Source of the DNA: Pseudomonadales bacterium
Lineage (GTDB): Bacteria; Pseudomonadota; Gammaproteobacteria; Pseudomonadales; IMCC2047
Assembly (NCBI GenBank): GCA_041395865.1
Contig: JAWKZQ010000015.1
Location: 1,604-65,603 of the forward strand
Length of the DNA: 64,000 nucleotides
Direction of reading: 5' to 3'
Shown: positions 48,047 to 54,786 of the stretch, piece after piece
How positions within the stretch are numbered: position 1 is the stretch's first letter
How the letters are laid out: each line of letters opens with the position of its first letter
Position numbers and translations under genes: made by a program
Notes under the pieces: generated by a model
What the model saw: the letters and a program-made list of their open reading frames with translations, nothing else
Database searches by the model: none
Told to the model about the DNA's origin: nothing

Positions 48047-48733
48047 TCAGGAGGGATTTGCCCATTGGCGGATCAGGTTATGGTAGATGCCACTCAGACT
48101 AACCACTTCGCTATGGTCCGTTCCAAGCGTTGCCGACAAACGCTGCACCGAGCGATCCAGATCGAATAGCATCTCCCGCTGTTGGATATCGCGCACCATG
48201 CTTTGTATCCAAAAAAAAGAAGCCAGCCTCTCCCCCCGCTGAACCGCGGAAACATGGTGCAAGCTGGTGGCTGGGTAAAGCACCATATCGCCCGCCGGCA
48301 ACTTCACGGCCTGCGTACCGAATTGGGTTTCAATCGTCAGCTCTCCACCTTCGTACTCTTCAGGCCCCGAAAGAAACAGGGTCGCCGACAAGTCCGTTCG
48401 TAATGTCTGGCTGCTTGCCGGCATCTGCATTAACGCCGCATCAATATGCGCCCCGTAGGTTTCAGACTCGCTATAACGATTAAATTTCGGCGGATAAATC
48501 CTGTCCGGCAACGCCGCTGAGATAAATACCGGGTGCTGCGACAAAGCCCTAAGAATATGGTTACCGAGACTGATCGCCGGCTCCTTGGTATCGTCTAACT
48601 GCCGGTTCTTTTTGACATGGCGAGCAATGCTGCCTGCGCTACTTGCGCCATCCTGCCAGTCAGCCTTCTCTAAAAGCTCCCTGAACTGGCCGACTTCATC
48701 AGCTGTCAGGACCTGAGGAATTGTTATCAGCAT
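48047..48733 (-). CDS. Fe(II)/2-oxoglutarate-dependent PKHD-type hydroxylase (PiuC/YbiX-like)
   Basis: MLITIPQVLT..., YGAHIDAA (HxD), GGELTIE, LYPATSLHHV. 228 aa, like YbiX/PiuC. Confidence 0.8.
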   Translation of the reverse strand: MLITIPQVLTADEVGQFRELLEKADWQDGASSAGSIARHVKKNRQLDDTKEPAISLGNHILRALSQHPVFISAALPDRIYPPKFNRYSESETYGAHIDAALMQMPASSQTLRTDLSATLFLSGPEEYEGGELTIETQFGTQAVKLPAGDMVLYPATSLHHVSAVQRGERLASFFWIQSMVRDIQQREMLFDLDRSVQRLSATLGTDHSEVVSLSGIYHNLIRQWANPS

Positions 48734-48737
48734 CGGT

Positions 48738-49865
48738 TTACCACTCCACGTTGCTTACGAGTTGAGTTGCCCTGATATCAGCAATGCTTGCACAACCCGC
48801 CATTGCCATACAAAGCGCCAGTTCCTCTCTGAGCAGCTTGATCATATGCGCAACACCCAGCGGGCCCGCCACGCTCAAGGCATATACCTGCAAGCGGCCG
48901 ATTAACACCGCGTTCGCCCCGAGAGCAATCGCTTTAAAAACATCATCGCCGGAGCGTATGCCACTATCGAGCAATAGCGGGTAATCATCACCCACTGCCT
49001 GGCGAATAGCAGGCAGCACGGAAAGACTTGCCGGCGCTCCATCCAGCGTCCTGCCGCCATGATTGGAGACAATTATGCCAGCCACGCCCAGGGCTTTTAA
49101 TTCGCGGGCGTCGTCAGCATGCAACACCCCTTTCACCAGCACCGGCACAGGACTCTCATCAACCAGCCGCTTCAGTTTTTCCCGGCTGGGCGCATTTTGC
49201 ATATAACTAAGAAAGATATGACGCTGATCGGCTGTTTCAATAACCGGAGGCGTCACCGGACGCTGATCAACCAGGTTAGCGGGCACAAGCTGCTCCGGAA
49301 ACTGAAATCCCGCCCGGATCGCCCGAATACTGGGTGCCTGCAACGCCGCATCGACGGTCACCACAAGGGCACGATAACCGGCACCCACAGCTCGTTCGAC
49401 AAGCGCTGAGGTATCTTCGTCCCGTGACTGGAAATAAAGCTGAAACCAGCGCTCATCTCCTGCGGCCGAGGCAACCGCTTCCAACGCCGTCGATGACAGG
49501 GTACTTGAAACCAGGCAGGTATCCGTTGCCGCGGCTGCGCAGGCGGTCGCCATCTCCCCGTTCTGGTGTACTAACGCCTGATACGCAACAGGCGCCAGCA
49601 ATATCGGATGTTTCAACGAGCACCCCAGGATCTTCACCTGGGTATGGGCGTTGCTGACATCCTTAAAAATTCGTGGCGTTATCGCCAGGTTCGCAAAGGC
49701 TTTTCGATTGTTTTGCAGCGTCACCTCATGACCGCTACCCCCTGAAAGATAGGCGAAACAATCAGGCGAAATAAAGGCTTCGGCCGTCCGCTCATAGTCT
49801 CTGGCACAAATTATTTCAGAGGGAATAGAGCTCAGCGGCGCTGCAACGATATTTGGAATGCTCAT
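48738..49865 (-). CDS. FMN-dependent alpha-hydroxy-acid dehydrogenase/oxidase family protein
   Basis: TIM-barrel family motifs: LLAPVAYQ, WFQLY, VVTVD, VKGV, SNHGGR, DSGIRSG. Confidence 0.85.
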   Translation of the reverse strand: MSIPNIVAAPLSSIPSEIICARDYERTAEAFISPDCFAYLSGGSGHEVTLQNNRKAFANLAITPRIFKDVSNAHTQVKILGCSLKHPILLAPVAYQALVHQNGEMATACAAAATDTCLVSSTLSSTALEAVASAAGDERWFQLYFQSRDEDTSALVERAVGAGYRALVVTVDAALQAPSIRAIRAGFQFPEQLVPANLVDQRPVTPPVIETADQRHIFLSYMQNAPSREKLKRLVDESPVPVLVKGVLHADDARELKALGVAGIIVSNHGGRTLDGAPASLSVLPAIRQAVGDDYPLLLDSGIRSGDDVFKAIALGANAVLIGRLQVYALSVAGPLGVAHMIKLLREELALCMAMAGCASIADIRATQLVSNVEW

Positions 49866-49897
49866 TCGACTGACACACCCATTACGGTTAAACGTGA

Positions 49898-49922
49898 GCG
49901 GGGCAGCAGTTCACTGCCCCGC
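49898..49922 (-). other. Intra-operon GC-rich stem-loop
   Basis: GCGGGGCAG-7 nt-CTGCCCCGC in the 67-bp gap after the receptor gene. No U-tract follows on the minus strand. Confidence 0.45.
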
Positions 49923-49932
49923 CGACAGAGGC

Positions 49933-53078: not shown

Positions 53079-53485
53079 TGCTGACTCACGGTTGCGATGC
53101 TTAGCTGGCGAATACCCAACTCTCGCACCGCAATCAACACCGGATCCAGGGCCGTTGCCGGCAGGTCGCGGTGAACATGGCAAACTACAGCAATATCCGC
53201 CGAGAGCGGCACCATGCCCTTAAGTTGCTCAGACAAATTGGTATCAACGGCCTTACCATTGATGTAATAGACTCGATTGGCATCGATTTTTATTTCAAAC
53301 TGTCCGGCTTCCAGCTGGGTTTCACTGTAGGAAGCGGGCACCTGAAGGTGCTCATTTCTCGCCTCGATATGCCCGGCAATCATGAAAAATATCAACAGCA
53401 GGAAAACGATATTTATTGCCGGAATCATGCTGTCATCCAGCTTATTCTGCGATGCGGTGCGTAACTCGGTGTTCACGATTTTCAT
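53075..53485 (-). CDS. exbD: ExbD/TolR-family biopolymer transport protein
   Basis: 136 aa, N-terminal PAINIVFLLLIFFMI transmembrane helix, ExbD periplasmic domain. ATGA overlaps at both ends. Confidence 0.85.
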   Translation of the reverse strand: MKIVNTELRTASQNKLDDSMIPAINIVFLLLIFFMIAGHIEARNEHLQVPASYSETQLEAGQFEIKIDANRVYYINGKAVDTNLSEQLKGMVPLSADIAVVCHVHRDLPATALDPVLIAVRELGIRQLSIATVSQQ

Positions 53486-53880
53486 GGCGTCACCGATTGG
53501 CCGAGCTTCAGGTTCGCAACGCCAGCCTGATGCATCCGGTCGACAAGCTGAACCAGCGCCTGAATGCGAACATCCGCACCCGAGACCAGGATCACAGGCC
53601 CACCCTCTTTGGCAAGCTTGTCCAGCAACGCCGTAAAACGCGGCCCCTGTAGCGGATAAACCTCATGATTCACAACCGCCGTTTCGGCAGCGCTCAGGAC
53701 TATCCGTGTCGCCTCACCGTGCTGTTGCTGCTGACCGGGCGATGCAGCAGTAACTTCCATCTGCCTGGCTTTGTTGAACGTCGACGACAACATGAAGAAC
53801 AGCAGCAGAATAAACACCACGTCAATCAGCGGTGTAATACTGATCAGTCGCCGGCGCGGCCTGGCAAGCTCAAGCAGCAT
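53482..53880 (-). CDS. exbD: ExbD/TolR-family biopolymer transport protein (second copy)
   Basis: MLLELARPRRRLISITPLIDVVFILLLFFML. The ATG at 53880 overlaps the exbB stop within ATGCTGCTTGA. The 53973 start in the track is an extension. Confidence 0.8.
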   Translation of the reverse strand: MLLELARPRRRLISITPLIDVVFILLLFFMLSSTFNKARQMEVTAASPGQQQQHGEATRIVLSAAETAVVNHEVYPLQGPRFTALLDKLAKEGGPVILVSGADVRIQALVQLVDRMHQAGVANLKLGQSVTP

Positions 53881-54736
53881 GTTGCGCCACTCCGCGCACC
53901 TCAGGAACGGCCGTAATGAAAGCCTCCTGACTGGTAAAAACCTGAGTAATCGCATCATTAATGGCGCTCGCAACCCTTTCGGCTTTCCGATCCAGCCAGC
54001 TATGCACCGCAGAAACAGGAATCGCTACAGCCAGCCCTGCCGCAGTCGTCAATAACGCCTGCCAGATGCCGCCGGATAAAGTGGATGGATCCACCTGTGC
54101 ACCTGCCGCTTCCATCTGCTGAAAGGCAACGATCATGCCCAGCACCGTCCCCATTAAGCCTAACAAGGGACTTAAATTCGCAATCACCTCGAGTGGGCGC
54201 AGCAGGGAACGCTGCTGCCCAATAAACACATCAGCCTGACGCCTCAATTCTTCCAGCAACAACCCGTAGTCTTGTTTCTGCAGGACACCCTGCATCGCAT
54301 ACAGCACGATTTTGCCAACCGGGTGCCTGTGATCAACGGCCTGAACCGCCGCCTCCGTATTCCGGTTACGCCAATGCGCCAAACCTCCTTTCACGGCATC
54401 AAGCTTTTCCGGGCGCTGTACGGCAATCTGCCAAAGCTTCAACAGAACGATGGTCAAGGCAAAAATGGAGAGGAAGATCAGAATCCAAACAACGGGGCCA
54501 CCAACACCCGCCAGGTCTATAAACTGGTTCAAGGTTCCTTCCACCTGCCCGGCACCTGATCCGTCAAACGCCGTCGTCAAGCTGTCCGGCGCAGCCACGG
54601 GGGTTTGTGCCGGATCAACGAGCTCTGGAGCCGCAGAGAGATCGCCGCCTAAATCTCCACCTGTTATTTCAGCTTTATTGGCGGCGCTATCGAGCATCTC
54701 GCCGCTCGCCGCTTCCACTTGATGACTACCGTTCAT
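53870..54736 (-). CDS. exbB: MotA/TolQ/ExbB proton-channel protein with long N-terminal extension
   Basis: Three transmembrane helices and the ...LGLMGTVLGMI... motif. About 90 aa of acidic, low-complexity N-terminus. Confidence 0.85.
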   Translation of the reverse strand: MNGSHQVEAASGEMLDSAANKAEITGGDLGGDLSAAPELVDPAQTPVAAPDSLTTAFDGSGAGQVEGTLNQFIDLAGVGGPVVWILIFLSIFALTIVLLKLWQIAVQRPEKLDAVKGGLAHWRNRNTEAAVQAVDHRHPVGKIVLYAMQGVLQKQDYGLLLEELRRQADVFIGQQRSLLRPLEVIANLSPLLGLMGTVLGMIVAFQQMEAAGAQVDPSTLSGGIWQALLTTAAGLAVAIPVSAVHSWLDRKAERVASAINDAITQVFTSQEAFITAVPEVRGVAQHAA

Positions 54737-54767
54737 ATTCAGTACCGGGTATATTGCAAAACTAAAA

Positions 54768-54786
54768 GATAATGATTATCGTTAGC
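54768..54786. promoter_or_regulatory. Fur box
   Basis: GATAATGATTATCGTTAGC matches GATAATGATAATCATTATC at 16 of 19 positions. It lies 32 bp upstream of the exbB ATG. Confidence 0.75.

Follow-up and report, generated by a model that had tools for sequence, protein, structure and literature searches.

Does a flavoenzyme gene that lies between a siderophore receptor gene and the dioxygenase gene usually found beside it belong to iron uptake and, if so, what could it do there? The question is raised by an operon in a 64-kb stretch of contig JAWKZQ010000015.1 of a Pseudomonadales bacterium (the whole stretch is called the window below). In this operon a gene of the flavin mononucleotide (FMN)-dependent FMN_dh family separates the genes for a TonB-dependent receptor of the Fiu/PiuA/CciT type and for a PKHD-type Fe(II)/2-oxoglutarate (2OG) dioxygenase of the PiuC/YbiX/CciO type. 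The answer has two layers: the region is a Fur-regulated iron-uptake unit, and the flavoenzyme is its dedicated partner; taken jointly, they are very probably correct. The receptor-dioxygenase unit is already known as Fiu-YbiX, PiuA-PiuC or CciT-CciO. What is new here is the third enzyme, which comes from an unnamed subfamily of FMN_dh.

The list of open reading frames (ORFs), searched with Pfam and NCBIfam, showed seven genes running in the same direction on the minus strand between positions 48047 and 54736 (Table 1). Their junctions were read directly: exbB and the first exbD gene overlap by 11 nt; ATGA overlaps join exbD1 to exbD2 and exbD2 to tonB; and, further on, tonB is separated from the receptor gene by 8 nt, the receptor gene from FMN_dh by 67 nt, and FMN_dh from PKHD by 4 nt. 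The top NCBIfam model of the receptor was Fiu (318 bits, under the equivalog cut-off of 686), and the siderophore receptor model TIGR01783 was cleared with 240 bits against a cut-off of 223.5. The dioxygenase scored 337 bits with NF003975, for which the cut-off is 180, and contains the PKHD_C domain. The predicted Fur box, whose end lies 31 nt 5' of the exbB ATG, was the sole site with three or fewer consensus mismatches in the window; 100 shuffles gave an expected number of 0.00.

A sequence-only reading of this DNA had listed the seven tightly packed, co-oriented genes with the identities and order given here, and the searches and junction reads bear it out. The motifs SNHGGR and WFQLY that it had noted in the flavoenzyme are real. 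Its description of a Fur-box-preceded unit of a Fiu/PiuA-type receptor and a PiuC/YbiX-type dioxygenase is supported by the receptor model, by NF003975 and by the Fur box; the position of this box stands, with 17 consensus matches where 16 of 19 had been counted.

The same core of a Fiu-type receptor gene, a co-oriented PKHD dioxygenase gene and a Fur box is found in fiu-ybiX(-ybiI) of Escherichia coli, in piuA-piuC of Pseudomonas aeruginosa and Acinetobacter baumannii and in cciT-cciO of Caulobacter crescentus. Unlike these, the operon in the window has the FMN_dh gene inserted between receptor and dioxygenase genes and four energiser genes in the same transcription unit, and it has no ybiI, PepSY_TM or Sel1 partner. 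The flavoenzyme gene is absent from the E. coli fiu-ybiX-ybiI locus, and a published neighbourhood survey, in which FMN_dh is not mentioned, gave PepSY_TM and Sel1 as the second and third commonest neighbours, each in fewer than 25% of genomes (PMC12004943); the flavoenzyme thus lies outside the units described so far, as the sequence-only reading had supposed. No paper linking PiuC/YbiX/CciO to the FMN_dh family was found in the literature covered, which excludes most subscription journals, so that an earlier mention is possible.

Linkage of the three genes elsewhere was analyzed in a scan that took one genome per species and used an alignment of the flavoenzyme as query. The scan yielded 80 loci, to which look-ups in Marinomonas algicola, Thauera and Massilia, all with the order receptor-FMN_dh-PKHD, added three. 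The neighbours in these 83 loci were typed by tblastn and ORF clustering. A PKHD gene adjoins the flavoenzyme gene in 74 of the loci and a receptor gene in 72, the exceptions being mostly short or truncated contigs, and Fiu was the top model for every linked receptor tested. The neighbourhood survey that the earlier reading had called for thus strongly supports the linkage.

Two gene orders account for most of the loci. The order of the window, receptor-FMN_dh-PKHD (order A), was found in 40 loci, all with the closer flavoenzymes (approximately 49-66% identity), and the order receptor-PKHD-FMN_dh (order B) in 30 loci, with flavoenzymes of 41-49% identity; gene orientations were divergent in four. 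The carriers belong to the Gammaproteobacteria (Oceanospirillales, Cellvibrionales, Alteromonadales, Pseudomonas and Thiothrix) and the Betaproteobacteria (many Burkholderiales and Rhodocyclales, and Methylophilaceae). Further carriers are an alphaproteobacterial metagenome-assembled genome (MAG), Arcobacter and a Sulfurovum MAG of the Campylobacterota, and a Binatia MAG. Marinomonas algicola, Neptuniibacter marinus, Amphritea pacifica, Thauera, Massilia and Azonexus are cultured carriers.

In a neighbour-joining tree the 83 flavoenzymes grouped in a single clade, and a long branch set them apart from Hmo (4-hydroxymandelate oxidase) and from the L-lactate oxidase of Aerococcus. They share signature residues that are absent from both of these enzymes: H340, present in 83 of 83, and also Q146, H86 and Y24. 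In the dioxygenase tree the proteins from loci with the order of the window likewise formed one clade, and the pairwise distances of flavoenzyme and dioxygenase correlate (r=0.63). Fur-box-like sites, defined as having at least 14 of 19 consensus matches, cluster in the related loci just 5' of the receptor gene or of exbB: 3 of 43 bins hold 38 of the 120 sites (binomial p approximately 1e-15). Because of the recurrence, the single clade, the common residues and the clustered Fur-like boxes, the association of the flavoenzyme with the unit is judged to be old, selected and tied to iron regulation. On these comparisons the flavoenzyme is best regarded as a selected, facultative third component of ordinary PiuC/YbiX-type units, and not as a chance insertion.

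A second scan, of metagenomes, was centred on the dioxygenase. It yielded 80 loci whose PKHD proteins share 51-61% identity with that of the window, and 52 of these loci had at least 600 bp on both sides. Of the 52, 49 contained a receptor gene and 10 (19%) a flavoenzyme gene, which was always located between receptor and dioxygenase genes. The true share may be below 19%, since the sample leans to relatives of the window protein.

The flavoenzyme itself is covered by PF01070 from residue 29 to residue 368, over 347 of the 350 profile positions; Gamma- and Betaproteobacteria contain hundreds of proteins related to it at 55-69% identity. Among solved structures, the best scores were those of Hmo (226 bits), human HAO1 (219 bits) and L-lactate oxidases (approximately 170 bits per domain). 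Its scores remained below the NCBIfam cut-offs for PRK11197 (236 against 376 bits), LldD (212 against 550), L-lactate oxidase (228 against 645) and MftD (211 against 471). Alignment to the Aerococcus viridans L-lactate oxidase and to Hmo, with the list of ligand sites of the latter (PMC6677016), revealed that the catalytic set is present as Y39, Y144, D172, K245, H269 and R272, which are the equivalents of Tyr24, Tyr129, Asp157, Lys230, His254 and Arg257 in glycolate oxidase. The set is kept, or nearly so, across the 83 relatives, and the flavoenzyme looks catalytically competent.

The substrate-binding loop is different. The arginine that holds the substrate carboxylate (Arg164 in glycolate oxidase, Arg181 in L-lactate oxidase and Arg163 in Hmo) is replaced by Ser179, with the loop length unchanged; in Hmo, the mutant R163A is inactive (PMC6677016). 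Serine occupies position 179 in 31 of 41 same-order relatives, and arginine in 39 of 42 members of the other lineage. The loop of the window lineage reads Q-x-P-S-x-R, and the change to Ser179 accompanies a change of Pro325 to Leu in the GRPQ motif. Two arginines of the flavoenzyme that are still present, Arg181 and Arg184, may stand in for the lost one. The position presumed to correspond to Trp108 of spinach glycolate oxidase is Thr126 here, and it is small and variable in the subfamily.

Because the carboxylate arginine is lost, it is unlikely that the enzyme is an ordinary lactate or glycolate oxidase, an identity that the sequence-only reading had named as telling against its proposal. 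Ser179, the small residue presumed to replace Trp108 and the scores far under the cut-offs for LldD and L-lactate oxidase argue for a specialised substrate. Catalysis in the FMN_dh family requires a hydrogen on the alpha carbon, and this narrows the earlier suggestion of an alpha-hydroxy-carboxylate iron-binding group as substrate: tertiary alpha-hydroxycarboxylates of the citrate type are ruled out. From its sequence the flavoenzyme is assigned to a distinct, unnamed, PiuC-associated FMN_dh subfamily in which the substrate-binding loop is altered.

The dioxygenase shares 48-52% identity with PiuC, YbiX and Sbal_3634. The iron triad (H96-x-D98 and H159) and the arginine that binds 2OG (R169) are invariant in the alignment with these three proteins, and the enzyme looks catalytically competent. 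Dioxygenases of the window lineage differ from those of the PiuC/YbiX/CciO units at two positions, with Met102 and Lys83 in place of the Arg and Leu found in unlinked relatives. No signal peptide is present in the flavoenzyme or in the dioxygenase, and both would therefore be cytoplasmic.

Two candidate signs of coupling between the enzymes were rejected. Residues 37 (Ala instead of Ser) and 93 (Tyr instead of Phe) of the dioxygenase accompany the flavoenzyme in both linked lineages; the unlinked YbiX also has Tyr93, and the pattern is confounded by phylogeny. A joint transition of flavoenzyme Arg179 to Ser and dioxygenase Arg102 to Met is not tight either: the latter spans the whole order-A lineage, and the former arose later within it.

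The energiser block of the operon consists of one ExbB, two ExbD and one TonB, each above its Pfam cut-off. The same four-gene block precedes the receptor gene in 31-36 related loci (TonB in 36, ExbD in 33 and ExbB in 31 of 83) and is an optional part of the flavoenzyme-bearing units. The dedicated TonB complex claimed by the sequence-only reading is thus present in the window but is not a general feature. The layout ExbB-ExbD1-ExbD2-TonB differs from the E. coli type. The spacer of TonB is rich in Pro and Glu, and ExbB has an N-terminal extension of approximately 135 residues ahead of its MotA_ExbB domain.

The seven genes may be unequally expressed. A stable GC-rich hairpin takes up the 67 nt from the receptor stop codon to the start of FMN_dh, so that equal expression is not assured. 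In 26 of 41 same-order loci (z below -2; these include L003, L006, L007, L008, L010, L011, L014 and L015) a comparable hairpin lies immediately 3' of the receptor stop codon, often with a T-run after it, and this recurrence suggests that transcripts are partly terminated, in a programmed way, between the receptor gene and the two enzyme genes. To judge from its structure and position, the hairpin is a probable partial terminator or attenuator, or else an mRNA-stabilising element; it probably lowers expression of the enzyme pair, with partial read-through leaving the receptor in excess. An Rfam search of the region from 44 to 58 kb detected no RNA family at E up to 0.1, and therefore neither the hairpin nor the 530-nt gap downstream of the operon is a known RNA.

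What the two enzymes could do together is suggested by pairs in which an iron oxygenase is followed by a flavin-dependent 2-hydroxy-acid oxidase. CsiD and LhgO of glutarate catabolism act in this order and regenerate 2OG. In hydroxyphenylglycine synthesis, the genes for HmaS, a non-haem iron oxygenase, and Hmo, a flavin 2-hydroxy-acid oxidase, occur together and their products act one after the other (PMC6677016), and no solved relative is closer to the window's flavoenzyme than Hmo. The likeness has limits: HmaS and CsiD represent oxygenase folds or families different from PKHD, LhgO is an enzyme that uses flavin adenine dinucleotide (FAD), neither pair is linked to a TonB-dependent receptor or to Fur, and for the window the sequential action is only inferred.

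The receptor-dioxygenase units have been studied genetically in Caulobacter, where the function of the receptor CciT strictly requires the cytoplasmic CciO and the ligand is probably self-made (PMC12004947). Three models were offered, in which CciO produces the ligand, disposes of an inhibitor or oxidises the ligand once it has been imported (PMC12004947). In two studies of 2025 the function of the dioxygenase was still unknown (PMC12004943, PMC12004947).

The explanation that best accounts for the locus as a whole, with a probability close to an even chance, is a Fur-repressed operon of the Fiu-YbiX kind that has its own energiser and an extra enzyme, the two enzymes sharing a pathway. That flavoenzyme and dioxygenase share one short 2-hydroxy/2-oxo-acid pathway in the cytoplasm, linked to the iron ligand of the receptor, is proposed tentatively, at somewhat under even chances. 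Under iron limitation Fur would leave the promoter, and the hairpin after the receptor gene would stop part of the transcripts, so that receptor would exceed enzymes. In the cytoplasm the flavoenzyme would turn an (S)-2-hydroxy-acid group into a 2-oxo acid by oxidising its C2 hydroxyl. The oxidised molecule would belong to the same pathway as the substrate or product of the dioxygenase, which would be the small iron ligand of the receptor, its precursor or a breakdown product. By analogy with HmaS-Hmo and CsiD-LhgO, the iron oxygenase might make a 2-hydroxy acid and the flavoenzyme oxidise it. A shared pathway fits any of the three models for CciO (PMC12004947).

Several observations weigh against such a shared pathway. 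No inner-membrane importer is encoded in the operon, and the hairpin could signal a partly independent expression of the enzyme genes. Action of the pair on an imported ligand, with release of iron or detoxification of a xenosiderophore, as the sequence-only reading had suggested, is thus a candidate role at most, since both enzymes are placed in the cytoplasm and the operon offers no transporter for the inner membrane. No natural fusion of flavoenzyme and dioxygenase was found in the protein collection, which was searched with a concatenated query. The unlinked dioxygenases PiuC of P. aeruginosa and YbiX of E. coli nest within the linked dioxygenases of order B, and the nearest relatives of PiuC in the set come from two Pseudomonas species that have the flavoenzyme; this enzyme has thus been gained or lost more than once. 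Because of this nesting, and because approximately four fifths of the sampled units lack the flavoenzyme, the core function of the dioxygenase is independent of it. Adjacency to the dioxygenase gene is not specific for shared chemistry, as other accessory genes also lie directly 3' of it: PepSY_TM, PepSY_2 with cytochrome b561, and TPR. We know of no substrate for any PiuC/YbiX/CciO protein, and these proteins resemble enzymes of the prolyl-hydroxylase type, not the known oxygenases that form 2-hydroxy acids.

In a narrower form of the shared pathway, the enzyme pair would make or remodel a small iron carrier of the 2-hydroxy/2-oxo-acid type, and receptors of the Fiu/PiuA/CciT type would have this carrier as their natural cargo. 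A candidate would be a 2-oxo acid, aromatic or dicarboxylic, comparable to those that serve Proteus as 'non-classical siderophores'. This form is rather unlikely; if it is true, the flavoenzyme variant exposes the substrate chemistry of the whole PiuC/YbiX/CciO family and bears on cefiderocol uptake.

The gene most often found 3' of the dioxygenase gene in units without the flavoenzyme was PepSY_TM (14 of 29). Among units with the flavoenzyme it occurred in 1 of 9 metagenome loci and 7 of 83 genome loci, that is, 8 of 92 (pooled Fisher p=1e-5; for the metagenome sample alone, p=0.06). PepSY_TM reductases of the PiuB/FoxB type are, like the flavoenzyme, a facultative redox partner directly beside the receptor-dioxygenase pair, and they are largely absent from flavoenzyme loci; they are integral membrane haem proteins, whereas the flavoenzyme is soluble. 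The two may alternate functionally.

This could mean that the flavoenzyme is an electron source: it would draw electrons from an abundant 2-hydroxy acid, and the reduced FMN would reduce Fe(III), either ligand-bound or that of the dioxygenase, in place of PepSY_TM. Ferric complexes, such as ferricyanide, are classical artificial electron acceptors of the FMN_dh family, and other redox accessories recur in the linked loci, namely cytochrome b561 with PepSY_2 (13-14 loci) and a PepSY_TM-flavodoxin-FNR fusion (8 loci). The anti-correlation with PepSY_TM is, however, confounded by phylogeny and by the differing sampling of the two sets, and several Pseudomonas loci and one Arcobacter locus hold both genes. 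A plain electron source should moreover keep a canonical site of the lactate/glycolate type, yet Arg179 was lost in the window lineage. Electron supply is unlikely as the role of the flavoenzyme.

The flavoenzyme might instead support the dioxygenase through its co-substrate, by converting L-2-hydroxyglutarate to 2OG; this would clear a competitive inhibitor and feed the dioxygenase when lack of iron throttles the tricarboxylic acid cycle. The conserved Arg169 and iron triad of the dioxygenase, the adjacency of the two genes, the specificity of the FMN_dh family for (S)-2-hydroxy acids and the regeneration of 2OG by CsiD-LhgO agree with such a role. In E. coli K-12 (L086, 836351-839207), hcxB (ybiC), coding for a 2-oxo-acid/hydroxycarboxylate dehydrogenase, lies on the opposite strand approximately 1 kb past ybiX-ybiI-ybiJ, which may be coincidence. 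The known L-2-hydroxyglutarate oxidases are, however, FAD enzymes of another family; a dicarboxylate substrate should add basic residues, yet the window lineage lost one at Ser179; and most PiuC-type enzymes manage without a flavoenzyme. Such a role is improbable.

P. aeruginosa LldA, of the same Pfam family, is raised under iron limitation (PMC11389411). It is a true LldD-type enzyme controlled by the lactate sensor LldS and is not located beside a receptor or PiuC-type gene; the enzyme of the window, in contrast, fails the LldD models and falls in another clade. Iron-cued catabolism, in which an ordinary lactate or glycolate oxidase would be placed under a Fur promoter to spare Fe-S dehydrogenases with no chemical tie to receptor or dioxygenase, has the precedents of lldA, whose induction was proposed to avoid the Fe-S-containing LldE (PMC11389411), and of Actinobacillus pleuropneumoniae LldD, which is up under iron starvation (PMC12507848), yet it is just as improbable in view of the scores (212-236 bits where the LldD models demand 376-550, and 228 where the L-lactate oxidase model demands 645), the enzyme's place in a separate clade, the loss of the carboxylate arginine, the lack of a lactate permease or lactate regulator nearby, and a linkage to PiuC-type genes, in two orders and at least four phylum-level groups, that is hard to explain by co-regulation alone.

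The receptor-dioxygenase pair is widespread in Proteobacteria, is the main iron route of Caulobacter under chelation stress and serves as an entry of cefiderocol into pathogens. A co-evolving and chemically understood third enzyme narrows the search concerning the dioxygenase to an (S)-2-hydroxy acid or 2-oxo acid as its substrate, product or co-substrate. The cultured carriers of all three genes are tractable organisms for this question.

Table 1. Features of the operon and of its divergent neighbours (window positions).
Feature	Position	Strand	Description
Fur box	54768-54786	-	GCTAACGATAATCATTATC; 17/19 consensus matches; predicted from sequence
exbB	53870-54736	-	288 aa; PF01618 MotA_ExbB, E=4e-26, residues 138-259
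exbD, copy 1	53482-53880	-	PF02472 ExbD, E=3e-17; likely start ATG at 53880
exbD, copy 2	53075-53485	-	PF02472 ExbD, E=5e-17
tonB	52302-53078	-	PF03544 TonB_C, E=5e-18; likely start ATG at 53078
TonB-dependent receptor, Fiu/PiuA/CciT-like	49933-52293	-	786 aa; signal peptide; plug and beta-barrel
GC-rich hairpin	49893-49927	-	RNAfold -27.6 kcal/mol; 11-bp GC stem; weak T tract after
FMN_dh-family enzyme	48738-49865	-	375 aa; PF01070, E=9e-115
PKHD (PiuC/YbiX/CciO-type) Fe(II)/2OG dioxygenase	48047-48733	-	228 aa; NF003975, PF18331 and PF13640
OmpR-type response regulator	55038-55748	+	Pfam; divergent from operon
Histidine kinase	55768-57015	+	Pfam; divergent from operon

An FbpA-like periplasmic binding protein is encoded in 18 of the linked loci and is absent from the window. 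Its gene lies directly 3' of the dioxygenase gene in the closest relatives of the window locus (L001, L006, L007, L008, L011, L014 and L019).

Two protein entries that had the appearance of FMN_dh-PKHD fusions were discarded. P0242 comes from a frameshifted stretch of a contig with 3x coverage and has an Arg-rich, out-of-frame middle part (L167, 6001-7812). P0241 is a spliced, eukaryote-style gene model placed on a bacterial contig in the assembly of the ostracod Cyprideis torosa, and the locus does not translate to P0241 (L168, 6001-7784); the presence of such a contig points to bacterial contamination of that assembly.

The two-component system divergent from the operon was considered as a conserved regulator of the module and rejected as such. 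Marinomonas algicola (L001; regulator 66% identical) and the metagenome locus L167 have a divergent regulator/kinase pair at this place, which the other loci lack; the regulator is conserved only in Marinomonas algicola. The pair is a possible local regulator, and its association with the operon is uncertain.

Downstream of the dioxygenase gene, a scan for an intrinsic terminator found none directly after it; the only candidate was a weak inverted repeat whose loop holds a T-run, at approximately 47942-47965. The non-coding gap of 530 nt extends from 47517 to 48046 and is followed by a gene at 47103-47516 for a Rnk-like protein with a GreA/GreB C-terminal domain; ndk is located at 40081-40572, 7 kb off.

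The GreA/Rnk-like gene, the operon and the two-component system form a block (46400-57100) between iscR-iscS-iscU-hscB-hscA (41226-46336) and cysE-trmJ (57145-59152). The isc genes and cysE-trmJ are usually neighbours in Gammaproteobacteria, and the block looks like an insertion beside the Fe-S cluster assembly operon. Its GC content is unremarkable.

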